Origin: Escherichia coli
GTDB lineage: Bacteria > Pseudomonadota > Gammaproteobacteria > Enterobacterales > Enterobacteriaceae
DNA: 64,000 nt
Strand: one strand, 5' to 3'
Assembly: GCF_041886205.1 (NCBI RefSeq)
Contig: NZ_CP169029.1
Shown here: positions 1,643-20,818 of the stretch, in pieces
Position numbering within the stretch: the first letter of the stretch is position 1
Layout of the letters: every line of letters starts with the position of its first letter
Made by a program: the position numbers and the translations under genes
Notes under the pieces: generated by a model
Told to the model about the DNA's origin: nothing
Seen by the model: only the letters and a program-made list of their open reading frames with translations
Database searches by the model: none

Positions 1643-1653
1643 AAAACCCCCTG

Positions 1654-3159
1654 TCAGCCCAGAGTCGGCATGGAGAACGCTGCACCTGTCTCCTGCTGCA
1701 TTTCCGGCCAGCGTGCAGTGATGGTTTTCATTCGGGTGTAGAAACGCACGCCATCGTTCCCGTGAACATTGAGCGCGCCAAAAATGGAACGTTTCCAGCC
1801 ACCGAAACAGTGGAATGCCATTGGCACCGGGATCGGCACGTTGACCCCCACCATACCCGCCTGCACCTCTTCACAAAAGCGGCGTGCGCAGCCACCGTCA
1901 CGGGTGAAAATGGCCGAGCCATTACCATATTCGTGTCGGTTAATCAGATCCACCGCGCTGGCGTAATCTGCTACGCGCACCACAGAAAGCACCGGTCCGA
2001 AAATTTCTTCTTTATAGATGGTCATCTCCGGGGTGACGTTATCGAACAGAGTCGGCCCAACGAAATAGCCCTGCTCGTGCCCTTTCACGCTGAGGCCACG
2101 CCCGTCCACACGCAGGTTAGCCCCCTGAGCTTCGCCACTGTCGATATAGCCCAACACTTTGCTGCGGTGTGCGGCGGAGATCAGCGGCCCCATCTCGTTT
2201 TCTGGCGTCTGGTTCAGGCCAGGTCCGACGCGCAGCGAAGCGATCTTTTTTTCCAGCCGGGCGCAGAGTTCATCAGCCGTTTTATCGCCAACCGCCACCA
2301 CCACGGAAAGCGCCATGCAGCGTTCTCCTGCCGCACCATAAGCTGCGCCCATTATGGCGTTTGTCGCCATATCCATATCGGCATCCGGCATTAAAATGCA
2401 GTGGTTTTTCGCACCGCCGAGCGCCTGACAGCGCTTACCGTGGGCGGACGCAGTCAGGTACATGTATTCGGCAATCGGTGTTGAACCGACAAAACTGACG
2501 GCCTGCACGCGCGGGTCGGTCAGGAGCACATCAACGGATTCTTTATCGCCCTGCACCACGTTGAATACGCCGTCCGGCAGGCCTGCCTCTTTCAGCAGTT
2601 TCGCCAGCGCGAGCGCCAGAGACGGATCTTTTTCCGACGGTTTCAGCACGAAGGTGTTGCCTGTCGCCAGAGCTATCGGGAACATCCACATTGGCACCAT
2701 CGCCGGGAAGTTAAACGGCGTGATCCCGGCGCAGACCCCGAGCGGCTGCATCAGTGAGTGGCTGTCGACACCTGTGCCAACGTTCGCAGAGTGTTCGCCT
2801 TTTTGCAGATGTGGGATGCCGCAGGCGAATTCTACCACTTCCAGACCACGGGTCAGTTCACCTACTGCATCTGAGAAGACCTTACCGTGTTCTTCACTGA
2901 TAATACGGGCCAGACGCACCATATTCTCTTCAAGCAACGCTTTGAAGCGGAACATCACACGCGCGCGCTTGAGTGGAGCAAAACGTGCCCACGCGGGAAA
3001 CGCCAACTGTGCTGCGGCAATCGCCTGTTCGGTTTCCTGTGCCGTACTCATCACCACCTGGCGAATCTGCTCGCCAGTGGCCGGGTTGAAGATAGCCTGA
3101 ATGCGCTGGCCTGAACCGGTGACACATTCGCCGTGAATAAAATTCGCTACCGTCTCCAT
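1654..3159 (-). CDS. iolA: CoA-acylating (methyl)malonate-semialdehyde dehydrogenase
   Basis: 501-aa ORF; ALDH-family hallmarks (VLKPSEKDP, catalytic Cys in GERCMALS); directly upstream of iolD-like gene. Confidence 0.8.
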
Positions 3160-3449
3160 CCTTAACCTCTCGCTGTTGATACGTGACTGTTACCTGAACG
3201 TTATGTACTGAACACTATATATGAAACAAATATTCCATTTTAAGTTGAAATAAAATAAATAATGATTATTGTGATCAAGGATGGATTTTTATGTGAACAG
3301 CCAGCATCACTGACTCAGCCTGAGCTATTAGGAGTTTCGGGCGAGGAAATGACTGAAGCTTCTGTTTCATTTTTGCTGCCAGGTGGATGGCCAACATTTA
3401 AAAGACGCGGTTTTGCGTTTAGAATCATGAGACTGGATAGGGGGATAAC

Positions 3450-4310
3450 ATGACGACAGCAACCAGCCTGAACGAACTACAAAAGCAAATCCGCGATCGC
3501 TACGATAGCCTGAGCAAAAGGCTGCAGCAGGTCTCCCGCTATGTACTGGATAATACGAACAGTGTCGCGTTTGATACGGTTGCGGTCATAGCCGAACGTG
3601 CCGATGTTCCACCCTCTACACTGATTCGTTTTGCCAATGCCTTTGACTTCACCGGCTTCAACGAAATGAAACAGTTATTTCGTATGCACCTGGTGGAGGA
3701 AACCGCCAGCTACAGCGATCGTGCGCGACTGTTCCGCGAAATGGAGAGCGAAGCCGTACCTGAAACGCCGCTCGATATTTTGCAGGAGTTCGCCAGTTCG
3801 AACTCGCAGGCGCTGCAGCAGTTGGCTGCCCGCGCCGAACCGGAGATGCTGGAGCACGCCGTACAACTACTGGCCTACGCCGACACCATTTACATCGCCG
3901 GATTACGCAGATCCTTTAGCATTGCTGCTTATCTTACCTATGCTTTAAGCCACCTAGAGTGCCGCCCTATTCTGCTTGACGGGATGGGCGGCATGCTGCG
4001 CGAACAGATCAGCCGTATTAAGGCGTGCGACATTGTGGTGTCGATCAGTTTCTCGCCGTACGCGGAAGAAACGGTGATGGTCAGCAAAACCGCCGCCAGC
4101 GTCGGCGCTCGGCAGATTGTGATTACGGATAGCCAGATCAGCCCACTGGCAACGTTCAGTGATCTCTGCTTTGTGGTGAAAGAGGCTCAGGTGGACGCAT
4201 TTCGGTCTCAGTCGGCAACATTGTGTCTGGTGCAGTCGTTAGTGGTCGCGCTAGCTTACCGTTTAGGAGATAAAAAACATAATAATACCCAGGAAAACAG
4301 TAACCAATAA
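3450..4310 (+). CDS. RpiR/MurR-family transcriptional regulator (IolR-like repressor candidate)
   Basis: 286-aa ORF, N-terminal HTH and C-terminal SIS-type sugar-phosphate-binding region; divergent from the iol catabolic genes. Confidence 0.75.
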   Translation: MTTATSLNELQKQIRDRYDSLSKRLQQVSRYVLDNTNSVAFDTVAVIAERADVPPSTLIRFANAFDFTGFNEMKQLFRMHLVEETASYSDRARLFREMESEAVPETPLDILQEFASSNSQALQQLAARAEPEMLEHAVQLLAYADTIYIAGLRRSFSIAAYLTYALSHLECRPILLDGMGGMLREQISRIKACDIVVSISFSPYAEETVMVSKTAASVGARQIVITDSQISPLATFSDLCFVVKEAQVDAFRSQSATLCLVQSLVVALAYRLGDKKHNNTQENSNQ

Positions 4311-4505
4311 TAACCAATGAACTCCTCCCCCGAGTCCATATAAGAGTAAATGATTCGGTGCCAGTAGCGATACAGACTTCAGATTGAATATCAACTGTAC
4401 TGCTATCTCCCTAAAAGGTCATGCCCCATGTGAGCGTACAACGAGAGCCTTAATCCTTAATAGCGAAGAAGATTTCTCTAGTAGGTGGTAATGTAACCCA
4501 GATAT

Positions 4506-4898
4506 AACGGCTTCTTTAAACAGTTTATTTACCATCGTTTTCTTACCTAGCAGGCGCTGAAGTTCTTTAATTTTATTCATGGCGGCAGCAAGTTCAGAGG
4601 CCGGAATACCCTGTTCTTCGGCTGTCACAGTAGTGAAGCTTCCTTCAAGGTAATGATACGCCAGAGAAATAACTGGCTGGCAGCCACACCGTGTTGCCGG
4701 GCAACAAGGGAGACCGTCATTCCCGGTTCAAAACTCTGCTGAACAATAGCGATCTTTTCCTGTGTAGTACGCCGTCTGCGTTTCTCCGGTCCTAAGACAT
4801 CAATCATCTGCTCTCCAATGACTAGTCTAAAAACTAGTATTAAGACTATCACTTATTTAAGTGATACTGGTTGTCTGGAGATTCAGGGGGCCAGTCTA
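4506..4898 (-). mobile_element. insC: IS2 remnant (IRL plus degenerate, frameshifted insC/orfA; insD deleted)
   Basis: Reverse complement of 4869-4898 reads TAGACTGGCCCCCTGAATCTCCAGACAACC (IS2 left IR); ORFs 4625..4852 and 4419..4628 together match IS2 InsC ([49 protein letters not shown]... [23 protein letters not shown]) with a frameshift; similarity stops near 4506. Confidence 0.75.
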
Positions 4899-4900
4899 TA

Positions 4901-5115
4901 CACTACCTCAGGTAGATGATGAGATCAGATACAGGGATCAACTGACGGTGAGCGCAGGCCCGCGAGTGCCCTGATTTAGCGCTGGTTTTGCTTTCCCATC
5001 GAAGGGCCCATACATCATCACGCCCGCGAAACAGTCGACAAAATAACGCAACTTTCTCATCCGTGGATAATACGGAAACGCACTGCACAGGACTCTGCGG
5101 TTTACGTCACCATTC
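4901..5115 (-). pseudogene. N-terminal fragment of an unidentified island gene, cut off at the IS2 end
   Basis: Minus-strand ORF ...VQCVSVLSTDEKVALFCRLFRGRDDVWALRWESKTSAKSGHSRAC... ends with a stop 3 nt before the IS2 IRL; second frame ORF 4938..5132 overlaps. Confidence 0.3.
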
Positions 5116-5328
5116 AATCCCATAAGCTTCAAGTTATGTTTGCCCTCAGTGCAGCTAATTCATCACTGTCAGATTTATGAACCATAGTCGTTACCTGTAT
5201 CCGATCCACTGAGGCACCACGGCAGAAATTCGGGTCCCCTACACTGATGACAAAGCCGCCCTCTTCTGCCTATTAACTCAAGCACCTCCCAACAACTTAC
5301 AGAAACTTAATCCTAATACAACTGTAAT

Positions 5329-5892
5329 TCAGTTGTGTCGTGGTCGGCCGCGGTTGCTTTTTTCGGGAAGCCTGCTACGGCCCAGAATAATACCGTGTTC
5401 TTTCTGATCCTGTTTAGCCAGATAGCTAAGGGCGTAACGTAAGTTGTCTACCGCGGACTTATCACTATAGTGCATCACGTGATCGATACGCACCGGGTAT
5501 TTGTCTTTAGCCCGGCAAAGGTGAAAGTAACCCTCCCCTTCCGTGATCTGCCTCCAGATATCTCCCAGTTGCCTGGATATCTGATAAGAGTTCTTGTGAC
5601 GTTGCCCATCCAGGTAGCCGACAAAATGAATATGAAGCCCTTTGTTTTGTGTATATTCCATTACCCAGTAATATCCCGCCAACATCGATTGGGTTTCGCT
5701 AAGTAAGCGGTATATTTCCATACACATACTGTGCTTACAGCCATGACCAAAACTGGGCGTGTCTTTCCTGTAGGCAAAATCAATTCTGAAAGGTAACAGT
5801 TTAGAAAAACGTTGAAACAGACCTTCCATGTGTTCATTCACGTCTTTCAGAATCATGAAGTCCATTTCGTAATTGGGATTAGCATTATACAT
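5329..5892 (-). CDS. YagK/YfjJ-family (inovirus Gp2-like) cryptic-prophage protein
   Basis: 187-aa ORF in same orientation as alpA and the split gene, matching CP4-57-type gene order (alpA - yfjI-like - yfjJ-like); family assignment from recalled sequence similarity only. Confidence 0.4.
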   Translation of the reverse strand: MYNANPNYEMDFMILKDVNEHMEGLFQRFSKLLPFRIDFAYRKDTPSFGHGCKHSMCMEIYRLLSETQSMLAGYYWVMEYTQNKGLHIHFVGYLDGQRHKNSYQISRQLGDIWRQITEGEGYFHLCRAKDKYPVRIDHVMHYSDKSAVDNLRYALSYLAKQDQKEHGIILGRSRLPEKSNRGRPRHN

Positions 5893-6858
5893 TTTATAGT
5901 CCTTACTTTATAAAACTGACAGGAAAGTGGAATTACATAAATACTGAGAGTACAGAAACGCCGTACCGCGGCATTAATAAACGAGGTAACCAGCAGCACA
6001 GACAACCTGATAAAACTGTTTCGTATTACCTCATTACAGTAATAGGGTAATGATTCAGAATACAGTAAGACTCTCTTAAACTGAGGACCAGAACGAATTA
6101 CAATAAAAAACACACCTCATATAATTGAGTTTAAGAAAGCACCATTCAATTACTTACAGGAAATAATCTGATCTTCACAAAAGTCAGCATTGAATAGCCA
6201 CAGGCAACATCGCTATTAGTATTGCCGTACCATTAAGTAAAAACAGAGACTCTGCAGAGAGAGCCTACAGATATTTAATCTCACAATAAGAAGATTATTT
6301 CATACAGAAAAGATTATATTTACCCATAAACTGTAACGGAGCTATAACGTACGAACTAAAGACAATATACTCTAATAGTGTTCTGGTACGTAACTAGTAT
6401 TAAATACAAACCAGACATACATTCAGTGGATTAACTTTCTCAATATTACGCTATAAGTGTAGTAACATAATTTACACATAACTAAACTCCATACACCACC
6501 ACACTGTAGTGTATGGAGATATATGTATTACGCACATACAGAATACTTAGCATAAAGAGGAGTGATATTACGATAGAAAGAGATAAGACAACATAACAGA
6601 TAACATAACTCCCATTAATAATACTAATTAACCTAAATTATTTATTGAACACGAAAACAATGAAGGCCCCACCTCACCTCAGACTAAAGCCGACAATATC
6701 CTGAGCAACACTCTATCCAATAGTAAATAGTGGTTACACCAGTTATATTTACTGACTGACCTGTACCAGAGTTTTCTAATACAACGCTGACATGGTAAAG
6801 ACATTAGTCTCCTCCGCAAGTAGCAGAGGAGACTATATGTACTCAACGATTAAGTCGT

Positions 6859-7191
6859 TCAGAGGTCAAAGTTAGGTGCGACACACAACGTTTTTCCCTC
6901 AATAACCGGTACAACTCTGTTTTGTTCATACAGTAAATCCAGTAACCAGTTGATTTTATCCTTTTTCCGGAAACGGTTCGGACCACGCTGTAAAATGTCA
7001 TTTTTTTTCATACAGAGGATCCCCTTCTCAATACAATAGCTTTTTATCCAGTTGAAAAGTTCAAGCTCCTCTGGAATGAGTCGCACAGGTACGGTCAGGG
7101 CAGAGTTGTCAAAAGTTAACGGATTAGACAACCGCACATACTCATTACCGTACCATATTGCTAATTCTCTCGCCATTTCTGCAGTGTAAGG
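6859..7191 (-). pseudogene. C-terminal part of island gene split by IS186 (YfjI/DUF3987-like, putative replication-associated)
   Basis: ORF 6859..7176 is in frame with ORF 8530..9660 once IS186 and one TSD copy are removed. Confidence 0.6.
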
Positions 7192-7202
7192 GGAAATATC
7201 CC

Positions 7203-8541
7203 CATAAGCGCTAACTTAAGGGTTGTGGTATTACGCCTGATATGATTTAACGTGCCGATGAATTACTCTCACGATAACTGGTCAGCAATTCTGGCCCATA
7301 TTGGTAAGCCCGAAGAACTGGATACTTCGGCACGTAATGCCGGGGCTCTAACCCGCCGCCGCGAAATTCGTGATGCTGCAACTCTGCTACGTCTGGGGCT
7401 GGCTTACGGCCCCGGGGGGATGTCATTACGTGAAGTCACTGCATGGGCTCAGCTCCATGACGTTGCAACATTATCTGACGTGGCTCTCCTGAAGCGGCTG
7501 CGGAATGCCGCCGACTGGTTTGGCATACTTGCCGCACAAACACTTGCTGTACGCGCCGCAGTTACGGGTTGTACAAGCGGAAAGAGATTGCGTCTTGTCG
7601 ATGGAACAGCAATCAGTGCGCCCGGGGGCGGCAGCGCTGAATGGCGACTACATATGGGATATGATCCTCATACCTGTCAGTTCACTGATTTTGAGCTAAC
7701 CGACAGCAGAGACGCTGAACGGCTGGACCGATTTGCGCAAACGGCAGACGAGATACGCATTGCTGACCGGGGATTCGGTTCGCGTCCCGAATGTATCCGC
7801 TCACTTGCTTTTGGAGAAGCTGATTATATCGTCCGGGTTCACTGGCGAGGATTGCGCTGGTTAACTGCAGAAGGAATGCGCTTTGACATGATGGGTTTTC
7901 TGCGCGGGCTGGATTGCGGTAAGAACGGTGAAACCACTGTAATGATAGGCAATTCAGGTAATAAAAAAGCCGGAGCTCCCTTTCCGGCACGTCTCATTGC
8001 CGTATCACTTCCTCCCGAAAAAGCATTAATCAGTAAAACCCGACTGCTCAGCGAGAATCGTCGAAAAGGACGAGTAGTTCAGGCGGAAACGCTGGAAGCA
8101 GCGGGCCATGTGCTATTGCTAACATCATTACCGGAAGATGAATATTCAGCAGAGCAAGTGGCTGATTGTTACCGTCTGCGATGGCAAATTGAACTGGCTT
8201 TTAAGCGGCTCAAAAGTTTGCTGCACCTGGATGCTTTGCGTGCAAAGGAACCTGAACTCGCGAAAGCGTGGATATTTGCTAATCTACTCGCCGCATTTTT
8301 AATTGACGACATAATCCAGCCATCGCTGGATTTCCCCCCCAGAAGTGCCGGATCCGAAAAGAAGAACTAACTCGTTGTGGAGAATAACAAAAATGGTCAT
8401 CTGGAGCTTACAGGTGGCCATTCGTGGGACAGTATCCCTGACAGCCTACAAAACGCAATTGAAGAACGCGAGGCATCGTCTTAACGAGGCACCGAGGCGT
8501 CGCATTCTTCAGATGGTTCAACCCTTAAGTTAGCGCTTATG
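7203..8541 (+). mobile_element. IS186 (IS4 family), complete 1339-bp copy
   Basis: 23-bp terminal inverted repeats CATAAGCGCTAACTTAAGGGTTG at 7203-7225 and 8519-8541 (rc); flanked by 11-bp direct duplication GGAAATATCCC at 7192-7202 and 8542-8552 in a GGGG-N6-CCCC target. Confidence 0.85.
7252..8370 (+). CDS. insL: IS186 transposase (DDE, IS4 family)
   Basis: 372-aa ORF with C-terminal YRLRWQIELAFKRLK motif typical of IS4-family transposases; lies between the IS186 inverted repeats. Confidence 0.85.
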   Translation: MPMNYSHDNWSAILAHIGKPEELDTSARNAGALTRRREIRDAATLLRLGLAYGPGGMSLREVTAWAQLHDVATLSDVALLKRLRNAADWFGILAAQTLAVRAAVTGCTSGKRLRLVDGTAISAPGGGSAEWRLHMGYDPHTCQFTDFELTDSRDAERLDRFAQTADEIRIADRGFGSRPECIRSLAFGEADYIVRVHWRGLRWLTAEGMRFDMMGFLRGLDCGKNGETTVMIGNSGNKKAGAPFPARLIAVSLPPEKALISKTRLLSENRRKGRVVQAETLEAAGHVLLLTSLPEDEYSAEQVADCYRLRWQIELAFKRLKSLLHLDALRAKEPELAKAWIFANLLAAFLIDDIIQPSLDFPPRSAGSEKKN

Positions 8542-9660
8542 GGAAATATCCCCCTCTTCACCGCTCGAATGGTAAATAAGTCCTGCCAGTCTTGCCATAT
8601 ACTCTGCATTTTTAGCAGCATATTCCCGGCAATGTCTTAAAGGCCCCAATCCCCCCAGCTTCGATTCCACATCATTGTAATAATCCGTCCAGATTCTGGC
8701 AGCCTGAGGAGAAAAGTGAAGGCAACGTCGTTCACCACTCATCGCCAGACTTTCATCAATAAGCTCATTGATCCTCTCTTCAAACAAATCCTGATACTGT
8801 GATGAATAATTATCTCCGGTTATTATCCTTGTCCCCTGCGTTGATGTTGGTTGACACATCAAAAACCTTGCATGATGTCCTGACGTTTTCACAATTTCTT
8901 TTTTTCGCGTACAAAAACCTTTGTGGTAAACATCAGGCTGAATCATCACCGATATCGTCAGTCTTGGCTCCTTCAAATTAATTCCGGGAGATGATTTCCT
9001 GTCGATGAAAAGAGAACCTCCATCCCACAAAGTGTTAATAATTCCCAGTTTACTCATGGCCCGGCTGTCAAAAATTACCCCCCCTTCACTGGATACAAGA
9101 GCAAAAGAGCGATTGCTGTCGGAATAATATTTTAACATTCCCTCTATCGTTGTCTCATTAAAAATTGTTCGACGTATCTGCGGCGGAACAGGAGGTTTAT
9201 TCAGATGCGTTTCAAGCTCTGATTCTGTTGCCTTGTAATCTTTACCGGCACGAATCTCTTTATGAAATTTTGATTCCAGCGCTTTTTGTTTTTGCTCCCA
9301 TATTTCCTTTTCTGTACTGTAATTCTCAACCAGTTTCGCGTATTCTTCCGCCAGGGCTTCATCCCTGAGATAAAATGCTTTCATAAACACTTTATCCACG
9401 GTCGTTTTCCTTTCACCGGAATCAGCCAGAATCAGAGAGTAAAGATTAACAGGCCCATGTAAATTTCCAGGTCTGCACACGTCAATCTGATTCTGACAGG
9501 CAATTGAGATCGCTGTTAATGCGGATGTTGCCACCATAGCCAAAGGTGCCTGTGTATTTTTTTGAGTTTCAATTATTGCATTTCTCACCAGCGGTGGTAG
9601 TGCATATATCGGATAAGGATTTTCTGGTGCAAGTAAGCACATAAAAGCCTCTCTTTTCAT
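8542..9660 (-). pseudogene. N-terminal part of island gene split by IS186 (YfjI/DUF3987-like); as-is ORF reads into the IS to a stop at 8530
   Basis: 376-aa ORF 8530..9660; last codons (EEGDISHKR) are encoded by TSD and IS186 IR; reconstructed uninterrupted gene would be 483 aa. Confidence 0.6.
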
Positions 9661-9674
9661 TAATGGGTTAGTAA

Positions 9675-9717
9675 AATAGCAGCAAATCCCGCTACAATAG
9701 CGAAAATAGCTGCTATT
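9675..9717 (-). promoter_or_regulatory. Nested palindrome (AATAGCAGC-N24-GCTGCTATT with inner CGCTA-CAA-TAGCG) in leader of the split gene; candidate operator
   Basis: Seen directly, 15-57 nt upstream of start codon at 9660; repeated in the duplicated copy at 10141-10180. Confidence 0.4.
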
Positions 9718-9860
9718 CAGACCTGATGCTCTGAGAAATACAGAGCATTTGTAGATCTGATGTTTAATAAACCGATAAGGTTAATTCAGTGAAGACTGTA
9801 TTATTCACCACGAAATATCATTCATATTTCTCATTCTTAATACCTCCAGAAATTATTTCA

Positions 9861-10190
9861 CTAATACCTTTCCCCCGGTCTTTTCCCTTTCTCCAGAACC
9901 ATAGTGTAAATATTAACGGCCCCACGTAAATTTCCGGGACTGCATACGTCAACCTGATTCTGACAGGCAATTGACATCGCTGTTAATACTGACATTGCAA
10001 CCAGAGTCAGAGGTACTTGTTTATTGTATTGAGCTTTAATTATTGCCTTCCCTATCATTGATGGTCATGCATATACTGAATACGGCATATCCGGTTTGAT
10101 GTAAGACATAAATGCTTCCTTTTTCGTAATACGTTTCGGTTATAGCAGCAATTACCGCTACAATAGCGACAATAGCTGCTCTTTCAACAA
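9861..10190 (-). repeat. Partial tandem duplication of the 5' end and leader of the split island gene (truncated paralogous ORF 9861..10058)
   Basis: 9861-10190 aligns to 9380-9730 at roughly 85% identity by eye; ORF 9861..10058 (MIGKAIIKAQYNKQVPLTLVAMSVLTAMSIACQNQVDVCSPGNL...) parallels the N-terminus of ORF 8530..9660. Confidence 0.6.
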
Positions 10191-10284
10191 TGAATGCTGG
10201 AAATTCTGTTTATCAATTAAACTTCTGGATAAATTGTTCTTATGCTTCTTTTTCCTCCTGAGGTGATCACGTGATGACAAAAAC

Positions 10285-10593
10285 TTATCTGCTCATGGTC
10301 ATATCTGAAGAAAGCGTATGTCGCACTTCGTCATTAACACCTTTGACTGCTGATCTGGCAGGTACAGTATGTAAAGTAAGCCATTCGTCAATAGCTGATG
10401 AACGCCAGCCCACAGAACCACTACCAAGACGTACCGGCCTGGGGAAGGTTGCATCGTAGTATTTCGATAACGGATTCATTTTTTCGTAAATTGTCGAACG
10501 AGATATACCTAACAATTGGCTCAGTTCAGGCATCCGTAAGATGCGTGAAGGAGTCCAGCAGTATCCGGATTGATCTGGCATTTTATCCCCCAT
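10285..10593 (-). CDS. alpA: AlpA-family phage/island HTH regulator (start codon uncertain; alternatives at 10581 or 10665)
   Basis: Contains ILRMPELSQLLGISRSTIYEKMNP...YDATFPRPVRLGSGSVGWRSSAIDEWL, matching the AlpA signature (YDATFP...SVGW...EIDEWL). Confidence 0.6.
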   Translation of the reverse strand: MGDKMPDQSGYCWTPSRILRMPELSQLLGISRSTIYEKMNPLSKYYDATFPRPVRLGSGSVGWRSSAIDEWLTLHTVPARSAVKGVNDEVRHTLSSDMTMSR

Positions 10594-10789
10594 AGTGTGG
10601 TGAACTGTCGTTACAGTTTGTATTCCCCGGGTAAATTTGTCTGCGTAAAAAAATGGGCTGAGCAAAAAGACAATAAATAATTAAAAATCAATACGATAGA
10701 AAACAACAGCATTATTGTTATTTTACTTTCACCTTATCGCTGTCGATTCTCATTATCATTCATTGGTAAAAAACAGCAAAAGAGGCCCT

Positions 10790-11553
10790 GGTAATGACTC
10801 CAGTCAGTAGTACAGTGTTTTCGACAAATGAACCAATGGCTTTTCGTGAATTTCCAGGGAGCGTGAAAAGCAAATCGTTTTCCGGGCTGGTCGTTTGATG
10901 TGAGTACGAAGTGTCAGATTGTTGCACTCAATGCGCCGGGTAAATATCTTGCCGACAAGATGCTTATCCTGTGGCATTTCTCTGGTATAACTGCTCCGGT
11001 TGTCTCTGGTTATCATGCCTGTGGAGAATGGCTTCAGGAGTTCCGGCAACTCACGACATGTTTCATCAGTGCGAGGACCAAAAGTGTAAGCCAGCACACC
11101 TCCAGATTTGGTGTTATACGCATACCAGTGCCACTGCTGACGAGCTTTGTTTTCGACAAAACTCCATTGTTCATCAAGTTCGCAGATAAGCGTCACATCG
11201 GCACTGGCGACTGGAGATGTGGTTACTTTGCGTGGTGAGCGTTTTATAAAGTGAGAATGACGGTGTTGATATCCACCTTCAGCGTTCTGGAACTATCGCG
11301 AACCCCGACTCCGTTATGAACCATTTCAACAATTTGCTCTTTAATGCCTGGTTTTCGGGTTTCGTAGATGTAATTCAGTTGAAATACACACGTTTGCAGG
11401 ATTAGCACTGGAAACGCTCATGATCTGAGGTGCTGTGATCATAATGGTACACTTTATAGGAATTACAGCTGGGAGAATGTACTGTAACTGTTGCCATATG
11501 GTCTCCAGATACCAATAGAATACCACATTAATCTATCGTCAGAAGGCATCACC
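10790..11553 (-). mobile_element. Degenerate IS1-family element (764 bp; insA frameshifted, insB N-terminal region degenerate)
   Basis: Terminus GGTAATGACTCC at 10790; ORF 10804..11196 matches IS1 InsB C-terminal half (QWHWYAYNTKSGGVLAYTFGPRTDETCREL...KTICFSRSLEIHEK); manual translation upstream gives InsA-like MATVTVHSPSCNSYKVY... then, after a frameshift, LNYIYETRKPGIKEQIVEMVHNGVGVRDSSRTLKVDINTVILTL; other terminus ...GCATCACC at 11546-11553. Confidence 0.65.
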
Positions 11554-11693
11554 GGGGCCTTCTGACATAATCTGTTAATACGTGTACTATTACCCTGTTC
11601 AGAAAATATTGATTCAAAAATGAAAACCAGTTAACAGAAAAGCAAAATGATATAATGTTAAAATTTTATATAGTGCAATAAAAGGAGAATGTT

Positions 11694-13511
11694 ATGTATA
11701 ATTTTATCACTATAATGTATGATGTCTTTTCATGTTTTGGTGTTCTGGCTAAAAACCAGAATACCCGTGACATCCGAAATATTAAAAATTTTTCCTCACA
11801 TCAATATTCACTGGGCGACATGTTTGATGAATTAATAAACATTATTGATAAAGAACAAGTATTGAGTACAGAACAACGAAAAGTTATATTTAGGAGATAT
11901 GAAGATCTCTATGTTAAGCTAATGCACTATTCTGTTTTTACAGACCAAACACATCAAATAATAAAACAAAAATATTTTAATGACATTGTACCAATGATTC
12001 TCGCACTCGACATCAGGAACACATATCGCCCGGATAATGAGATGGCATTTTACTATCATATTCATTCTTTTCTCACTCAGATACCGGATAATGAGGATGA
12101 TATATATCATGCTGCAAGGACATATCTGCGAAATTACGTTAAGTTATGTTTATCCGGATACACACCAGCGAATGCGCATTTCAAAGATATCTTTGATGGC
12201 GTATATGAATTCATTCGTAATATTCGCAAAAACAGTACACCAGGAAAAACAAAACTTATCGCAACTATCAACACATGCAAAGAAACCTGTAAACATCTGC
12301 TTTATTTAAGTAATGAAGACAAGGAAAAAATAATTTCTGACTTAGATAAAGTTCAGGTTGCATGTTATTATCTCACTATATTACTGGCTTTCGAAAGACG
12401 AACTTCATTAACAAGCACCCTGGCAACTTTATATAAAATGCTGATAAGCGAAAGAGAAGTTTCAGAATATGAATGCCAGTTATTATATTTAACCAACCCA
12501 ATAGATGTAATGAATATACTGAACAAATACATATATTACTTTCCTAATGAAAACTCACCATTTTATACACTGAAAATTGACAGTGCATTATCGTGGGATG
12601 CCATTGACGCAATACGAGACTATAGTATTTCTGATATTTATCTTTATCCTGAACAAAAAACAATAAATTGTGTCGTTGAGATTGAAAACATTGTCTTTGG
12701 CGGTTACATTTATACATTGAACAACGGCGTCACATTACAAAACATAGAAAACACTTTAAAAGATTCTTCATGCCATTATGTCTTAAATGGCTATACAGAA
12801 TTTGTTAACTGTTTGATACAACTTACTTCAGGAAAGACTGAAAGTGTTCATCGCACCATCAATAAACTGAACTATGAGAAATTACCTTTTGGATTTATCA
12901 TTGCCGCGTTTGCTATACTAAAGATAGCATTTAAAATAAAATTCAGTAAAAATCATGTAAATATCCGAGCATTATTAAATGACATCAATTATTTTATGAC
13001 TTATCAGGGCGAGTCCATTAACCTTATTTCACTGGATCACGAATACCCAGAGTCCTGTCTTCAAAATGACACAAACACATATTTATTAGGAAGAGTAATA
13101 TTTCTGTATAACTCAATGATTTATAAGTTCATAAACTGTCAGGAACATGAAACCAATAACATTCACTCAGCTATGATAAATAACCTATTACAGGAAGTTG
13201 ATATAGCCCTTGGTAAAATAAATAACATTATAGACAGCAGAAACATATCAGCCCCCCATGAACTGGCAAATATTCTTACCCGCGAAAAAATACTTACAAC
13301 ACGGGAAAAAAAAGGAAACCTGATAAGCCTGTTTGATGGATTCACTTTATTCCATTGTGTTGGAATGATAACCTTTCTTATCCATTATCTCAGAACACCT
13401 GAAGAAAAAGTTGAAAATATATTTATGTTATATGGTGCAGATAAAAACAATAAACTACGCAGAAGACTGATTTATGACGCACTAGGAATAATTCAGTCTC
13501 AGCAGGAGTGA
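11694..13511 (+). CDS. Hypothetical 605-aa protein, AT-rich cargo gene in the int-alpA hotspot; no recognisable catalytic motif
   Basis: Long uninterrupted ORF in very AT-rich DNA; SD aaaggaga 5 nt upstream of ATG; TATAAT at 11651-11656; convergent with integrase. Confidence 0.7.
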   Translation: MYNFITIMYDVFSCFGVLAKNQNTRDIRNIKNFSSHQYSLGDMFDELINIIDKEQVLSTEQRKVIFRRYEDLYVKLMHYSVFTDQTHQIIKQKYFNDIVPMILALDIRNTYRPDNEMAFYYHIHSFLTQIPDNEDDIYHAARTYLRNYVKLCLSGYTPANAHFKDIFDGVYEFIRNIRKNSTPGKTKLIATINTCKETCKHLLYLSNEDKEKIISDLDKVQVACYYLTILLAFERRTSLTSTLATLYKMLISEREVSEYECQLLYLTNPIDVMNILNKYIYYFPNENSPFYTLKIDSALSWDAIDAIRDYSISDIYLYPEQKTINCVVEIENIVFGGYIYTLNNGVTLQNIENTLKDSSCHYVLNGYTEFVNCLIQLTSGKTESVHRTINKLNYEKLPFGFIIAAFAILKIAFKIKFSKNHVNIRALLNDINYFMTYQGESINLISLDHEYPESCLQNDTNTYLLGRVIFLYNSMIYKFINCQEHETNNIHSAMINNLLQEVDIALGKINNIIDSRNISAPHELANILTREKILTTREKKGNLISLFDGFTLFHCVGMITFLIHYLRTPEEKVENIFMLYGADKNNKLRRRLIYDALGIIQSQQE

Positions 13512-13698
13512 AACGTTAAAACAGGCAAATTGTTTTTTATAAATAGGAGATTGTTGAGTAATCCCCTGTTTATAAAAATACGCTTTCCTGACGATCTGAT
13601 AATTATCAGCTCAATACATTTGACATAAAAGCGGTTCCTTAATTACTACTGCCACGATCACATATCAAATCATGATCGTACAATATACATTTTCACTA

Positions 13699-14901
13699 TT
13701 ATTTATTCACAATTTGAGACATCACATAATCCGCCCATGCCTGCATCATCGGTACACGCTGCTCCAGTAGATCAGTACGATGATATGCCGCCTCAACCTT
13801 ATTTTTCAGCGTATGAGCGAGCGCCCTTTCCGCCAGATCCCGCGAATACCCCTGTTCACTACACCAGTCCCTGAATGTTGAGCGAAAACCATGTGCCGTG
13901 GCAACTCGCCCCGGAATGTCACTGACGGCTTTCTTTTTACGCAGAAAACTTGTCAACACCATATCGGAAAGGATCTGCTGCTTTCTGGGTGAAGGGAACA
14001 CCAGTTCATCATGCAGGCCACGTATATTTTCCAGAATGTAAATAGCCTGCCGGGATAAAGGAACACGATGCTGTAGCCTGGCTTTCATTCTTTCTGCAGG
14101 TATAGTCCATACCCGCTTATGAAAATCAATTTCAGCCCAGCGCATTCCCCTGGCTTCGCCCGAGCGAGTTGCTGTAAGTATCACCATTAATAACAGTGCG
14201 CGGGTAACATTATAAGGTTCATCACTATACACACTGGTCGCCACAAAAAGCGGTAACTGCCTCCAGGGCATTGCTGGTTGGTGTTCATCACGTCCTCTTG
14301 TCTGCTGAGGAAGCAAATGGTCAACCACATCAACAGGATTTGCCACACAAAAACCGTGCGCCCATCCCCACTGCATAACAACATGAATGCGCTGTTTAAC
14401 CCGGCTTGCCGTTTCTGACAAGGTTAACCAGACTGGACGCAGTGTTTCTGCCACGTCCGCAGCCGTAATCGAATCCAGCGTTTTTGCTCCCAGTTGAGGA
14501 AACGCGTAATTCTCAAGCGTCGATAACCACTGCCTTACATGCTTTGGATTTTCCCATCCTGGAGACAATTCTGCATGTACACGCCTGGCTGCATCGGCAA
14601 ATGTTGGGATAACGACTTTCTCAGATTCAGCCTTTTTAATCTCCAGAGGATCATCACCTGCAGCAAGTTGCTCTCGCATTATCCGGGCAGTACGTGCAGC
14701 TTCAGCAATACTGACCTCTGGGTAAGTTCCCAATCCAGCATTACGTCTTTTTTGTGTCACCGGACTTACATAACGAAAAACCCATTTCCCCCGCCCCTTT
14801 ACTGAAGAAGGATGAAGGGTCAGTCCGGTAATTCCCCCATGGGGCAATGGTTTGTCATCAGGTTTGATATGTCTTGCTTTCGTATCCGTCAATACTGCCA
14901 T
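13699..14901 (-). CDS. int: Tyrosine site-specific integrase, P4/CP4-57 IntA-like
   Basis: 400-aa ORF; N-terminal LTDTKARHIKP...FRYVSP arm-binding-type region and C-terminal catalytic motifs (HGFRSTFRDW, LAH, Y in EAAYHR). Confidence 0.9.
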   Translation of the reverse strand: MAVLTDTKARHIKPDDKPLPHGGITGLTLHPSSVKGRGKWVFRYVSPVTQKRRNAGLGTYPEVSIAEAARTARIMREQLAAGDDPLEIKKAESEKVVIPTFADAARRVHAELSPGWENPKHVRQWLSTLENYAFPQLGAKTLDSITAADVAETLRPVWLTLSETASRVKQRIHVVMQWGWAHGFCVANPVDVVDHLLPQQTRGRDEHQPAMPWRQLPLFVATSVYSDEPYNVTRALLLMVILTATRSGEARGMRWAEIDFHKRVWTIPAERMKARLQHRVPLSRQAIYILENIRGLHDELVFPSPRKQQILSDMVLTSFLRKKKAVSDIPGRVATAHGFRSTFRDWCSEQGYSRDLAERALAHTLKNKVEAAYHRTDLLEQRVPMMQAWADYVMSQIVNK

Positions 14902-15044
14902 ACGCTAATTCCCGTCACTCTGGTATGCCATCCAGTATGCCATTAGTCTCTCGCTTCACTAAGAATACATTAGATAATATCGGACAACAAAAAGTGTAAT
15001 ACATTGTTTATAATGAAATTATATAACACCCCTGGATTAAGTCA

Positions 15045-15525
15045 GATTTATTTCAGGCGGTCCCCCTCACCGCCATATTTAAAGAAGAGCTCGTACGAAA
15101 GTACGGGCTTTTTTTTCGTATATTGCACACACCGGGGGGATGAGAATCCCCGACCGGGGGTCGACAACTGGCGGCAGCCAGTTGGACAGACCGTGAACGC
15201 AGTGAGCGGGCTGCCCGCAGGGCGAGCGAAGCGAGTCAATCCCCCCCTCACCGCCATATTTAAAGAAGAGCTCGTACGAAAGTACGGGCTTTTTTTTTCG
15301 TATATTGCACACACCGGGGGGATGAGAATCCCCGACCGGGGGTCGACAACTGGCGACAGCCAGTTGGACAGACCGTGAACGCAGTGAGCGGGCTGCCCGC
15401 AGGGCGAGCGAAGCGAGTCAATCCCCCCCTCACCGCCATATTTAAAGAAGAGCTCGTACGAAAGTACGGGCTTTTTTTCGTGTATTGCACACACCGGGGG
15501 GATGAGAATCCCCGACCGGGATACT
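15045..15525. repeat. Tandem direct repeat array, unit about 181 bp, about 2.7 copies
   Basis: Units begin near 15061, 15241 and 15421 with near-identical sequence; each has a terminator-like hairpin plus T-run (gagctcgtacgaaagtacgggcttttttt) and hairpins GGGGAT-GAGA-ATCCCC and CAACTGGC-N4-GCCAGTTG (loop differs between copies, stem conserved). Confidence 0.9.
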
Positions 15526-15528
15526 TAG

Positions 15529-16215
15529 TTAATGCAACGGTTCACTCTTTGTCGCCGCGACTAATGGGCGAATTTTGTCACGAGTCTCCCAGACCGGAGG
15601 GATTTCCTCCAATTTAGTGACAGAAGCTCGTACAAAAGGCACTCGTGCAAGAGTCATAATCGTATCCAACCAACGGTCACGAATAATGCGATCCGCCCTT
15701 TCATGACTCGGGTCATCCAGCTCAATAACACAGACTATTTTATTGTTCTTCTTTGAAACCAGAACATAATCCATTGCCATGCCATTATAAATTGCAAAGA
15801 AACGCTTTCTTTCTTCTTCGCTAAACTCAGGTTGTTCTGGATAGTTGAGCAAGCGCCCCAGAGAGACCTGGCAATGGATATGACAATAATGTCCAAACCA
15901 TTTCTCCAGATTATCGAAATACATTTTTTCACAACGCGTGATTAACCACTCTTTTCCTTCCAATAAAATACCTTCGGCAACCATTCCCTGAAATAACTCA
16001 TCTCGTTCTTGCCAACGAGAGTCACGATAGGTTTTCTGCGGTATATAGGTCCTTGTCGACGACTTAGCAGCAGGGGAAGTTGCAGATGAAGGGACTGGTT
16101 GCGATTTAGCGATGATTACCGATGAGGCAACTTTTCGGAGTGTCAATTTTCTGGCAACAGCAAAACCGGCGACAAATGCAATTGTCAAACAAGTTACAAA
16201 AGCCATAAAGCTCAT
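15529..16215 (-). CDS. Membrane-anchored protein with DUF2726-like (nuclease-fold) C-terminal domain
   Basis: 228-aa ORF: N-terminal hydrophobic helix, Ser/Pro-rich linker, C-terminal globular domain; family call from recalled similarity only. Confidence 0.45.
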   Translation of the reverse strand: MSFMAFVTCLTIAFVAGFAVARKLTLRKVASSVIIAKSQPVPSSATSPAAKSSTRTYIPQKTYRDSRWQERDELFQGMVAEGILLEGKEWLITRCEKMYFDNLEKWFGHYCHIHCQVSLGRLLNYPEQPEFSEEERKRFFAIYNGMAMDYVLVSKKNNKIVCVIELDDPSHERADRIIRDRWLDTIMTLARVPFVRASVTKLEEIPPVWETRDKIRPLVAATKSEPLH

Positions 16216-16761
16216 AATTAATTTTCACTTATCCATGTTGATTATATTTCATTACCAATGTTACTCGCTGAAGCGTGTTACATGCCAACAATGCAACGAT
16301 CAATATATAGTTAGTATCATGTTTTGATTATTACAACCATCCCTATTTTGCCATTGCAGCTTGCCTTCCACAAAAAAAATAACAACAAACAATATTAGCC
16401 AAAGAATTAATTAAGATTAACCTTGCATTTATAATATTATCCCTAAAGAATAAATCAGAGGAATATATTCGGTGTTAATCAGTCAGTCAAATTATGGCCC
16501 ATTGTTGATTAAACCTCATAAGCAAAATTGGCACCAGATCTCCTGTACAGGTTGAATGGCCGAAAAAAGATAGGCAGATGCTCGCTTTTTTGGCTTCTGG
16601 AAGAAAAACTCTCCGCACTGGCAGTATTACACTGGTCTGATGCTATGACGAAAAATGCCTGGTAAGAGTATCTAAACCAGACTCCAGTTCAGCTTATCAA
16701 CACGCTCAAAGTCGCCCCCCTGAACGCTAACCTGAAGTTAAAGTCTTTGCTGTTAATGAAA

Positions 16762-16790
16762 TAAAACAAAGCCCGGTTCGCCCGGGCTCT
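16762..16790 (-). terminator. Intrinsic terminator downstream of phoH
   Basis: GC hairpin AGCCCGG-TTCG-CCCGGGCT followed on the minus strand by a T-rich run. Confidence 0.5.
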
Positions 16791-16805
16791 GCACCGATAA
16801 CACAC

Positions 16806-17729
16806 TTAACTGTATGCATGCAGCGTACGTTGGCAAAGTGCCGAACGTACGCAATCCTCTTTACCGAACCGGACGATCCCAACCATTTCATCTTCTTCGA
16901 AACGTTCCAGCGCGTCACTTAATCCGGAGCACACGCCGCGAGGCAAATCGCATTGCGTGATATCACCGTTGACGATAACTGTCACGTTCTCCCCGAGGCG
17001 GGTTAAAAACATTTTCATTTGCGCGGCAGTCACATTCTGCGCCTCGTCAAGAATGACGACTGCATTTTCAAAGGTACGTCCACGCATATAGGCGAAAGGC
17101 GCAATTTCCACCTTCCCTATTTCCGGTCGCAGGCAGTACTGCATAAAGGAAGCCCCTAAGCGCCGGACCAGCACGTCGTAAACCGGGCGAAAATAGGGAG
17201 CAAACTTTTCTGCGATATCTCCAGGTAAGAAGCCAAGATCTTCATCGGCTTGCAGAACTGGACGGGTGACGATAATCCTGTCGACATCCTTATGTATCAG
17301 GGCCTCTGCCGCTTTTGCTGCGCTGATCCAGGTTTTTCCGCACCCGGCTTCGCCCGTGGCGAATATCAGCTGCTTACTCTCAATAGCCTTCAGATAGTGC
17401 AATTGCGCTTCATTACGCGCGAGGATGGGCGAAGTATCGCGACTGTCGCGGGCCATACCAATGGCTTCTACGCCGCTCATTTGCACAAGCGAGGTGACCG
17501 ATTCTTCTTCACGCTGCTTATGGCTGCGCGAATCCCGTCTCAGCACACGTTTTGCCTCGCGACGAGCTTTGATCACTGCTTTTTGTCTTCCCATGGAGAG
17601 CACCTTGAGTTGTTTGTATTCATCACACGCGCCGTTGGCAGCGCGATTATGCGCACGAACATCAGAGGGTTGGCTTCCTTGTAAGCCATAGTTTGCTTTT
17701 GGATAAAATGCCGAAAAACGGCTACGCAC
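16806..17729 (-). CDS. phoH: PhoH ATPase core ORF; N-terminal extension appears frameshifted, so the full gene would span 16806..17869
   Basis: ORF with Walker A GEAGCGKT; separate upstream ORF 17573..17869 (MVTSYTGHVLDNQ...) with SD ggag overlaps it in another frame. Confidence 0.8.
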   Translation of the reverse strand: MRSRFSAFYPKANYGLQGSQPSDVRAHNRAANGACDEYKQLKVLSMGRQKAVIKARREAKRVLRRDSRSHKQREEESVTSLVQMSGVEAIGMARDSRDTSPILARNEAQLHYLKAIESKQLIFATGEAGCGKTWISAAKAAEALIHKDVDRIIVTRPVLQADEDLGFLPGDIAEKFAPYFRPVYDVLVRRLGASFMQYCLRPEIGKVEIAPFAYMRGRTFENAVVILDEAQNVTAAQMKMFLTRLGENVTVIVNGDITQCDLPRGVCSGLSDALERFEEDEMVGIVRFGKEDCVRSALCQRTLHAYS

Positions 17730-18017
17730 ACCGTTTGCGGCGTCGGTAACACGAGTAAAGAGAGGAAGTGAGAAAAATACAGAGTGACGAAGTTGCTACC
17801 GGAGGAGAAAACTCCGCGAGTGGTGGCGCGTTGATTATCTAAAACATGTCCAGTATAGGACGTTACCATCCGCGATCTCCATAGTGACTGACTATCACTG
17901 CCGGGAACTTCCGCTGCTACTTAATAAGTACAACAGATCTCGCATTTATTGCAACAATATATTTACTTATATTTAACTATAAAACACCATTTTAGTGACA
18001 TTAGTTTCTACTGGAAA

Positions 18018-18070: not shown

Positions 18071-18400
18071 GCATCAGGCATCAGTGCACGATCGCCGGAT
18101 GCGGCGTAAACGCCTTATCCAGCCTACCAAACCCGCACCGATTATAGGCATGATAAGACGCGCAAGCGTCGCATCAGGCATCAGTGCACGATCGCCGGAT
18201 GCGGCGTAAACGCCTTATCCAGCCTACCAAACCCGCACCGATTGTAGGCATGATAAGACGCGCAAGCGTCGCATCAGGCATCAGCGCACGAACGCCGGAT
18301 GCGGCATCAACGCCTTATCCCGCCTACCGAACCCGCACCGATTGTAGGCATGATAAGACGCGCAAGCGTCGCATCAGGCATCAGCGCACGAATGCCTTAT
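18071..18400. repeat. BIME/REP array (three units of about 110 bp containing GCCGGATGCGGCGTAAACGCCTTATCC)
   Basis: Three near-identical copies of canonical REP palindromes between phoH promoter and efeB. Confidence 0.85.
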
Positions 18401-19690: not shown

Positions 19691-20818
19691 TTAATCCAGT
19701 CCCAGCACACCGCGAAGTTGCGCCAGATCTTCCGCCAGCGCAGTAATCGGTCCTTTCAGTGCATTCCGGTCGGCATCGGTCAATTTGTCGTAGGTTTCAA
19801 AACCGTCTTTAGTACGGTATTTCGCCAGAATGGTATCGACCTTTTTAAAGTTGGCATCGACTTTTGCCAGCAGTTCCGGGTTGGCTTTTTGCAGTTGTGG
19901 ACGCAGCAAATCGACAATTTTCTGCGAGCCTTCAACGTTAGCCTGGAAATCCCACAGATCGGTGTGGCTGTAGCGATCTTCTTCACCGCTAATTTTGCTG
20001 GCTGCCACTTCCTCAATCAGTCCGGCTGCGCCGCCGACCACTTTTGAAGGTGGGAAAGCCAGTTCACTGATGCGTTTTTGCAAATCGACCACATCTGTAT
20101 AAAGCTGCTCAGCGTACTGATCCATCCCTTTGGTGGTGTTGTCGCCAAACAATGCTTTTTCCAGACGGTGGAAACCAGTGAATTTTGGGTCGGCGGCTTT
20201 TTGCTCGTAATCATCTTCACGGGCGTCAATGCTGCCATCCAGATCGGAGAACAGTTCAGCAATCGGTTCAATGCGCTCATAGTGCTGGCGCGTCGGCGCA
20301 TACAGTGCTTTCGCTTTTTCGATATCGCCAGCTTTAATCGCGTCGGTAAAGGCTTTGGTGTCGGTCACCAGCTGCGTGGTTTCCGCCATGACATACGCTT
20401 TATATGCAGTAATTGCACCACCAAGACTTAACAGCGCATCACTTTGCGCCGCATCCGCCGTTGCCTCACCTTTGACGATCAACTTCCCTTTCGGGTTAGT
20501 CAGCAGACCGCAGGTCATATCGTATTCGCCAGGCTGTAAATTCGCCGTCATTTTCTGGCTAAAACCAGGGGCGATATTTTCCCGCTCTTCCACCACCATC
20601 ACGCCTTTGAGGATCTCCCACTCCAGCGCCTTCTGGCTATGGTTCTGAATAATGAACTGTGTTTTCCCGGCGTTAACCGTAATGGTCATCGGTTCGCACT
20701 GCTTATCCGTCACGGTCACTTTGACCTGCGGCACATCAGCGGCGTTAGCCATAAAAGCAGAAGAAAACAGCGCAGCCACGCTCAACTGCAATGCGTTACG
20801 GCGGAAGTTAATGGTCAT
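19691..20818 (-). CDS. efeO: Periplasmic iron-binding protein EfeO
   Basis: 375-aa ORF with signal peptide; between efeU and efeB. Confidence 0.9.

Follow-up and report, generated by a model that had tools for sequence, protein, structure and literature searches.

The SpLE1-type integrative elements of Escherichia coli go by several names (OI-48, TAI island, SRL-PAI, PAI-serX), and both the island family and its attachment site at the tRNA gene serX are already known. SpLE1 of O157:H7 Sakai and the OI-48/OI-43 TAI island of EDL933 occupy the 3' end of serX, with a 14-bp direct repeat, TGGCGGTGAGGGGG, that has been published for OI-43/48 and SRL-PAI (PMC3064760). The SRL-PAI integrase has been reported to be 99% identical at the nucleotide level to that of OI-43/48 (PMC3064760). 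Site-specific excision has been measured for OI-43/48 and SRL-PAI, and precise deletion of the latter was shown to need int (PMC3064760; PMC7545054). The PAI-serX of extraintestinal E. coli comprises PAI-UTI89-serX, PAI-CFT073-serX and the islands of RS218 and IHE3034. A more distant element, CP4-57 of K-12, integrates in ssrA and has the architecture int, opposite-strand ORF, alpA, yfjI, yfjJ, with an AlpA-domain and a DUF3987 protein.

We have analysed a 64,000-nucleotide stretch of E. coli DNA (contig NZ_CP169029.1; hereafter "the window"), in which an initial annotation had placed a CP4-57/P4-like island between the iol cluster and phoH. Positions 1-15061 of the window are almost certainly the integrase-proximal ~15 kb of a large SpLE1-type element inserted in the 3' end of serX (Table 1). 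The region is real but ordinary, being the integrase end of a genomic island that is well known and very common in E. coli.

Table 1. Features of the island end and of the adjoining chromosome (window coordinates)
Feature	Position	Strand	Description or basis
iol (myo-inositol catabolism) cargo	1-4310	.	Inside the island; ZYB62 comparison
iolD, 3' part	within 1-4310		iol cargo
CoA-acylating methylmalonate-semialdehyde dehydrogenase	1654-3159	-	iol cargo
RpiR-family regulator	3450-4310	+	iol cargo
IS2 remnant	~4490-4898	-	Left terminal repeat ending at 4898 and frameshifted orfA
iee remnant (IS-excision enhancer, archaeo-eukaryotic-primase protein)	4912-5185	-	Residues 1 to ~116 only, frameshifted
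Inovirus-Gp2/YagK-YfjJ-like protein, 187 aa	5329-5892	-	Orthologue of SpLE1 ECs1304
yfjI-family gene (DUF3987, helicase-like)	6859-9642	-	Interrupted by IS186
Complete IS186	7203-8541	+	23-bp terminal inverted repeats
Relic N-terminal fragment of a second DUF3987/yfjI-type gene	9861-10058	-	Similarity to ECs1303
alpA-family regulator/probable excision factor, 98 aa	10285-10581	-	Pfam Phage_AlpA, 6.5e-19
Degenerate IS1 remnant	~10804-11497	-	Between alpA and the 605-aa gene
605-aa AT-rich ORF	11694-13511	+	Orthologue of SpLE1 ECs1300; DNA ~32% GC
P4-family tyrosine integrase, 400 aa	13699-14901	-	Intact; Pfam domains
Two arm-type repeats GTATGCCAT, 12 bp apart	14923-14943	+	Putative integrase arm-binding sites, P arm
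attR core CCCCCTCACCGCCA	15062-15075	+	Last 14 nt of tRNA-Ser(GGA) serX; island/chromosome junction
Chromosomal backbone repeats	15076-15520	+	~2.5 tandem units of ~181 bp each, RtT-like
DUF2726 gene	15529-16215	-	Chromosomal backbone, not island

Attachment site and chromosomal backbone

As the initial annotation had noted, the 64-kb window contains no tRNA gene (ARAGORN), but the attachment site that it had considered unclear was recovered through alignment to K-12. A distance of 160 bp separates the start of int from the core CCCCCTCACCGCCA, which equals the published 14-bp repeat formed by the final 14 nt of serX/serW. To the left of the core, the sequence diverges from serX and is that of the island; to its right, it continues as the serX downstream region found in K-12 and in an island-free strain. 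The limits of 4400-16300 first given for the island have therefore been replaced, with the core as the right junction and the left junction beyond the window.

The arm-type repeat has only one further copy within the 64-kb window, and in the islands of strains YZ22PE68 and ZYB62 the same doublet lies at the attL end, ~60-85 nt past serX. These two islands are complete (~44 kb in YZ22PE68; ~70 kb in ZYB62, which is near-identical to the one studied here), having an intact serX with the second core (attL) at one end and int with the core at the other.

Rightwards from the core, the serX downstream repeats are followed by the DUF2726 gene and then by phoH. Each repeat unit closes with a duplicate 3' end of serX, which places extra core copies at 15243 and 15425, and the array is 98% identical to the repeats between ycdU and serX in K-12. 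Relatives annotate the same repeats as RtT sRNA (RefSeq). Rfam missed them at its gathering threshold, and two RtT-like copies (RF00391; 38.2 and 38.6 bits, E ~1e-5, gathering score 45) were visible at the E-value threshold only.

Alignment to island-free genomes placed the direct-repeat core at the right junction and revealed the empty site of strain 2018-11-3CC, which reads ghrA-serX-DUF2726-phoH. Hence, the DUF2726 gene belongs to the chromosomal backbone, and between phoH and serX it is an alternative allele to pgaABCD-dgcT-ycdU. The absence of pga genes from the window had been correctly described and had been taken to mean that the island occupies their position. This interpretation fails, since UTI89, Sakai and ZYB62 carry the island together with pgaABCD-dgcT-ycdU; in ZYB62, the same island simply has a different adjoining backbone.

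Of 5,426 complete genomes of E. coli, 1,031 (~19%) contain the integrase end, with the 605-aa gene, int and the core. Such a distribution, together with the existence of an empty site, supported that the island is a discrete insertion of the P4-integrase, AlpA type, and this part of the earlier description holds: its gene content is not shared by all E. coli, and its right junction is discrete.

The integrase-proximal module and its relatives

From the junction through yfjI, the window shares 98.7-99.6% DNA identity with SpLE1. The int-proximal order int, ECs1300, IS1 relic, alpA, yfjI, ECs1304, iee is kept in the window, where yfjI is split and iee truncated, and so is the orientation, with int beside the cryptic ser'X end (ycdU-int in SpLE1). 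The encoded proteins are 99.25% (Int, ECs1299), 98.8% (ECs1300), 98% (AlpA, ECs1302) and 92% (ECs1304) identical to those of SpLE1, whereas the Gp2-iee stretch has only 90% DNA identity, with an indel at 6295-6585. The two elements further differ in cargo (iol in the window versus urease, tellurite resistance and iha in SpLE1), in the state of iee and yfjI (an N-terminal stump and an IS186-split gene, respectively, in the window) and in the adjoining backbone (DUF2726 versus pga...ycdU in Sakai).

UTI89 has an identical int-proximal module, IS1 relic included, and the match (at 1080861) falls where PAI-UTI89-serX begins in its published coordinates (1080842-1142536). Unlike the island in the window, the extraintestinal PAI-serX carry S pilus, salmochelin and Ag43 cargo and lie beside dgcT-pgaABCD. 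SRL-PAI, which we liken to the window from its published description, has the same 14-bp repeats at serX and differs in its antibiotic-resistance and fec cargo.

The integrase contains the arm-binding, central and catalytic domains (Pfam Arm-DNA-bind_3, Phage_int_M and Phage_integrase), and the R...HxxR...Y catalytic residues could be recognised by eye in its translation. The protein is identical in C11 and YZ22PE68 and differs by 2 aa in UTI89. Based on what is known for CP4-57, the AlpA protein is a probable excision factor.

The decay attributed to the region (IS186, IS1 and IS2 debris, truncated genes) was confirmed. The two yfjI halves are 95% and 100% identical to ECs1303, and the gene matches a PHROG DNA helicase family (5e-62). 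It is intact, encoding 477 aa, in C11 and ZYB62. The interrupting IS186 is flanked by an 11-bp target duplication, GGAAATATCCC (7192-7202 and 8542-8552), is 100% identical to IS186B copies and matched the IS4-family transposase model. This copy is missing at the yfjI site in C11, ZYB62, YZ22PE68, UTI89 and Sakai, and its insertion is recent. The IS1 remnant is, in turn, ancestral to the island family, the same frameshifted pseudogene being present at the same spot in C11, YZ22PE68, UTI89, ZYB62 and Sakai (ECs1301). The relic fragment between yfjI and alpA has 57% identity to residues 18-78 of ECs1303 and is annotated in relatives as a DUF3987 fragment.

The Gp2-like protein gave weak Pfam matches to REP_ORF2-G2P (9e-4) and YagK_YfjJ_C (0.015), and blastp returned no match between it and K-12 YfjJ. 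The yfjJ-like assignment is weak. Between the Gp2-like gene and yfjI (5850-6900), a search for the iterons of a possible replication origin yielded only chance-level short two-copy repeats. The iee remnant was identified by a tblastn match of the Sakai IEE (ECs1305) and by a weak NCBIfam PrimPol match, and relatives annotate a TOTE primase-domain pseudogene there; the gene is truncated by IS2. An IS2 end sequence is visible in the window, and the ORF translations at 4490-4898 match IS2 InsC, at a place where relatives annotate a frameshifted transposase. The IS2 remnant forms the joint between the iol block and the iee remnant.

The gene order first reported (int, opposite-strand 605-aa ORF, alpA, yfjI, yagK/yfjJ-like) was found with the genes in their places. 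It agrees with that of CP4-57 and, with the window containing neither a tRNA gene nor pga genes, would be compatible with a self-contained ~12-kb CP4-57-like cryptic element that lies between chromosomal iol and phoH, replaces pgaABCD-ycdT and has no identifiable att site. Such an element is very improbable, as the comparisons of the junction and of the empty site already contradict it: an att core exists and consists of the serX 3' end, DUF2726 also occurs in the island-free strain, the island and pga coexist in three strains, and iol is found inside the ZYB62 serX island and other islands. Furthermore, the proteins are just 34-54% identical to those of CP4-57 (Int versus IntA, 34%; YfjI, 42%; AlpA, 54%), and the 605-aa protein is unrelated to YfjH. 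Thus, from the CP4-57/P4-like label, the P4 integrase, the AlpA type and the CP4-57-like order are retained, but the nearest relative is the SpLE1/OI-48/PAI-serX group (99%), not CP4-57.

The P4-type integrase, alpA and the DUF3987 gene with its helicase match would also fit a P4-like phage satellite or a phage-inducible chromosomal island that depends on a helper phage for its packaging. We consider this extremely improbable. Every ORF of the module is accounted for, with no capsid-size, packaging or cos ORF (sid, psu, delta) among them, and the complete relatives are too big to package (44-113 kb) and carry Ag43, cbtA/yeeU, fimbriae and restriction-modification genes.

The iol block and the left end of the island

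The iol cluster had been regarded as a chromosomal flank. Window positions 1-6294 have 99.1% identity to the serX island of ZYB62, in which the iol cluster sits between serX and the int module, and the whole of 1-15136, iol included, is 99.1-99.6% identical to that strain. As ZYB62 has the same island (~99%) as a ~70-kb element bounded by serX, the iol cluster is cargo of the island, whose left end must lie beyond the window.

The iol genes also occur in islands other than that one. ZYB39 carries an identical iol-IS2-iee-Gp2-yfjI block in its thrW island, where window 1-7203 is matched at 99.5%, indicating that the block has moved between islands. The mismatch pattern changes near 6250 from ZYB39-like to serX-island-like, and no contiguous match to the full iol-to-phoH stretch (window 3000-18000) was present among the 5,426 complete genomes, the best match, in C11, beginning only at window 4506. 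The left part of the window could in principle derive from a rearrangement. These observations, and the finding that in OI-48 internal IS-mediated deletions are far commoner than excision (PMC3064760), are compatible with a stranded SpLE1-type module, whose serX-proximal part was lost or moved through IS elements or homologous recombination with a thrW island, and which would retain only attR and be unable to excise. We regard this history as unlikely: in ZYB62, the same island with its iol genes retains both intact ends at serX, which is the simpler model, and, the thrW and serX islands having the same orientation, intrachromosomal recombination between them would be expected to delete ~0.8 Mb. 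Inversion of the chromosome between these two islands was also considered as the source of the iol junction and, given the intact ZYB62 island, was dropped as a first choice.

Predicted excision and the 605-aa protein

For an island that continues to an intact left end at serX, a mechanism can be proposed by analogy with the published excision of the near-identical OI-43/48 and SRL-PAI islands. The P4-family integrase would bind the arm-type repeats and the core, and recombination between the two 14-bp cores would release the island as a circle and restore serX, with AlpA probably helping or switching on the reaction. Judging from ZYB62, the intact serX and second core (attL) would be placed, in direct orientation, ~55 kb to the left of the window. 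This end is expected to read serX followed by GATTAYAAGCGCATG..., with the GTATGCCA doublet and a DUF4942/cbtA end module. The predicted attP, ...CAGGCGGT-CCCCCTCACCGCCA-GATTAYAAGCG..., would join the window from ~14950 outward to the attL-side arm, and the predicted attB would be serX directly followed by TATTTAAAGAAG.

We have then considered the 605-aa protein, which had been listed as cargo. Searches of Pfam, NCBIfam, PADLOC and PHROGs gave no match to it, and the PDB gave none at the level of either sequence or fold; comparing profiles revealed no relationship to YfjH, and its locus tag led to nothing relevant in the literature. The AF2 model (pLDDT 84) had no informative fold match, and the model obtained from the single sequence was useless (pLDDT 38). 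This uncharacterised protein is confidently predicted to be all-alpha. A word-index homology search recovered only homologues of at least 91% identity. Distant homologues (25-35% identity) were found head-to-head with alpA-DUF3987-yagK in all four loci examined. About one complete E. coli genome in five has the gene, which also adjoins alpA in other genera. Based on the head-to-head arrangement in the four distant loci, on the confident all-alpha prediction and on the lack of similarity to Pfam families or solved structures, we tentatively suggest that the ORF, instead of being cargo, might belong to the conserved core as a partner of the mobility module alpA-DUF3987-yagK. As such, it may act, for example, as a master repressor or sensor of alpA, or have a maintenance or defence function.

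As a discovery, the locus carries little weight, the island family and the serX site having been described before. The gain is one of annotation: the true junction of the island is fixed, the pga/DUF2726 backbone polymorphism is told apart from the island insertion, and the inositol (iol) genes are shown to ride on a serX island. The uncharacterised 605-aa family is the single point that could repay work.

Composition and affiliation of the integrase-proximal module

The window is E. coli chromosome. ORF listing, domain searches and the RefSeq annotation of near-identical relatives confirmed the gene order read by the initial annotation, from int through the 605-aa ORF, alpA and yfjI to a Gp2-like gene. 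The IS-driven decay that it described was also borne out: IS186 splits yfjI, IS2 has truncated iee, leaving ~116 N-terminal codons, and the IS1 remnant is degenerate. The integrase gene, alpA and the int-side junction attR, with its putative arm-type repeats, are intact.

Features of the integrase-proximal module
Feature	Coordinates	Strand	Remarks
Tyrosine integrase (int)	13699-14901	-	400 aa; P4-type architecture (arm-binding, central and catalytic domains)
605-aa ORF	11694-13511	opposite to int	in ~32% GC DNA
IS1 remnant	~10804-11497		degenerate
AlpA-family gene	10285-10581		Pfam 6.5e-19
DUF3987 relic	9861-10058		short
yfjI-family gene	6859-9642		interrupted by IS186
IS186	7203-8541		complete; 23-bp terminal repeats, 11-bp target duplication; inside yfjI
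Gp2/YagK-like gene	5329-5892		weak Pfam support
Primase-domain gene stump (iee)	4912-5185		first ~116 codons
IS2 orfA remnant	~4490-4898

The DUF3987 relic derives from a second gene of yfjI/DUF3987 type, of which it represents the N-terminus; it shares 57% identity with the yfjI present here. This relic and that of IS1 are both kept in the same position in Sakai, UTI89, C11 and ZYB62, indicating that the two decay events are older than the spread of the family. In the non-coding spacer that separates yfjI from the Gp2-like gene, a segment has been replaced (6295-6585); it measures 289 bp, versus 140 bp in Sakai, and is divergent in ZYB62 too. Repeats above chance level were not found in this spacer.

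The SpLE1 island of O157:H7 Sakai starts beside ycdU with int (ECs1299), ECs1300 (605 aa, opposite strand) and an IS1 pseudogene, and continues with ECs1302 (alpA), ECs1303 (yfjI), ECs1304 and ECs1305, the IS-excision enhancer IEE. Between the junction and yfjI, the latter included, its DNA is 98.7-99.6% identical to the window, and its Int, ECs1300 and AlpA proteins are 99.25%, 98.8% and 98% identical, respectively. The same module, including the IS1 relic, is found in UTI89 at the published start coordinates of PAI-UTI89-serX. In contrast, the CP4-57 prophage of K-12 shares only 34% (Int), 54% (AlpA) and 42% (YfjI) protein identity, and the Gp2-like protein had no match to K-12 YfjJ. Thus, the proposed CP4-57/P4-like nature held for the element type, the P4-type integrase and the layout, whereas the closest relative is SpLE1/PAI-serX, of which family the element is a member. 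The integrase end (605-aa gene, int and core, at least 80% coverage) was present in 1,031 of the 5,426 complete E. coli genomes. The island is real, discrete and horizontally acquired, but its family is long known and very common and the attachment site has already been described.

Attachment site and right junction

The window contains no tRNA gene. The attachment site, previously considered unclear, is the 14-bp end of the tRNA-Ser(GGA) gene serX (the core) at 15062-15075, 160 bp from the int start. The segment 15062-15520 aligned to the ycdU-serX repeats of K-12, last serX bases included. By sequence reading, CCCCCTCACCGCCA corresponds to the final 14 nt of tRNA-Ser(GGA) at its 3' end. The window has exactly three copies of this string, at 15062, 15243 and 15425, against a chance expectation of 0.02. 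Those at 15243 and 15425 lie within ~181-bp tandem units, the normal serX downstream repeats. These units are RtT-like, scoring 38 bits in Rfam (under the gathering score of 45), and carry the RtT annotation in relatives. Left of the first copy the serX match ends and island DNA begins.

In the island-free strain 2018-11-3CC the locus reads ghrA-serX-DUF2726-phoH, with serX continuing directly into TATTTAAAGAAG. In YZ22PE68 and ZYB62, one island end consists of intact serX and core followed by island DNA (GATTAYAAGCG...), and the int end reads ...CAGGCGGT, core and TATTTAAAGAAG, adjoining int. The core is exactly the direct repeat of OI-43 and OI-48 of O157:H7 and of the Shigella SRL island (PMC3064760). 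The empty site, the two ends and the published repeat together established the first core copy as attR and the right island boundary.

A GTATGCCAT doublet is found at 14923 and 14935, between int and the core, and again, in the islands of the relatives, just past serX at the opposite end; judging from sequence, it looks as arm-type integrase sites of attP would. A promoter-like site directed at int spans 15045-15018.

Downstream of serX the RtT-like units are arranged in tandem, each terminated by a tRNA 3'-end copy, and the chromosome therefore offers several core copies (three in the window, four in K-12, locus 18962-19584). The island occupies the one nearest serX. RtT-like copy number differs between strains, with none beyond serX itself in the empty-site strain.

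Boundaries, backbone and the iol cargo

The right limit had been placed at 16300, but both the DUF2726 gene (15529-16215) and the AT-rich spacer between it and phoH also occur in the island-free strain and hence belong to the backbone. The reported absence of pga genes from the window holds. Replacement of pga by the island does not, because in UTI89, Sakai and ZYB62 the island lies beside dgcT/ycdU and pgaABCD. The phoH-serX interval (window 15529-16762) exists in two alternatives, DUF2726 gene plus AT-rich spacer or pgaABCD-dgcT-(IS3)-ycdU, and which of them a strain has does not depend on the serX island. Outside the island, matches at the Rfam gathering score comprised Ysr251 (188 bits; 16811-17004, +), antisense to the phoH 3' end, two REP-type naRNA4 between phoH and efeB (18147-18324, -) and a cspA thermoregulator (51103-51525, -).

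Position 4400, taken as the left limit, is not an island end: ZYB62 matches window 1-15136, myo-inositol (iol) cluster included, with 99.1-99.6% identity. Its ~70-kb element, running from serX to int, contains a DUF4942/cbtA-yeeU/RadC/antirestriction/Ag43 module, a type I restriction system with DarTG, several IS66 copies, uhpC and the iol cluster, in this order. The cluster, formerly regarded as the island's flank, is therefore inside the island, and is island-borne in C11 and ZYB39 too. The contiguous iol-to-phoH stretch (3000-18000) was found in none of the complete E. coli genomes, ZYB62 being the nearest arrangement, with the same island and a different adjoining backbone. Overall, the initial annotation was partly right, correct on element type and decay and mistaken on attachment site, pga relation, both boundaries and closest relative.

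The thrW (proA-side) island of ZYB39 holds an iol-IS2-iee remnant-Gp2-yfjI block (locus 20001-27221) with 99.5% identity to window 1-7203. Mismatches with ZYB39 are few up to ~6250 and many past it, whereas those with the C11 serX island remain few rightwards of ~5000. This switch is evidence that the block was exchanged between paralogous tRNA islands by homologous recombination.

The 605-aa protein and island excision

The 605-aa protein is a member of an uncharacterised family and had no match in Pfam, NCBIfam, PADLOC or PHROGs. A word-index search returned only homologues of at least 91% identity, and a full HMMER scan revealed about a dozen full-length relatives (~25-35% identity). At 4/4 loci examined, the distant homologues lie head-to-head with alpA-DUF3987-YagK_YfjJ across a ~100-bp gap, surrounded by defence-type genes. 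In the window, as in every E. coli relative, the gene and alpA are now kept apart by the IS1 relic. The AlphaFold model built on the relatives' alignment was confidently all-alpha (pLDDT 84, pTM 0.84), and its AFDB50 matches were solely uncharacterised proteins of Enterobacterales, Aeromonas and Burkholderia, none an informative fold match. YfjH, in the same position in CP4-57, proved unrelated. These data suggest that the protein may be a core partner of the mobility module, perhaps with a regulatory role, and not a cargo protein.

Kirby, Trempy and Gottesman reportedly found in 1994 that the AlpA of CP4-57 turns on the integrase and sets off excision. Precise deletion of the SRL island needs int (PMC3064760; PMC7545054). 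Islands that share the 14-bp repeats and have integrases of 99% identity undergo site-specific excision between the repeats, restoring serX or serW, at reported frequencies of ~2e-4 to 2e-3 for OI-48 and OI-43 (PMC3064760). IEE promotes excision of IS3-family elements (PMC9397093), a function lost at this locus in the window's strain. Excision of this copy would depend on attL, the serX-side junction outside the window; by recombining the 14-bp repeats, the integrase would excise the island, as in the OI-43, OI-48 and SRL islands, and restore serX.
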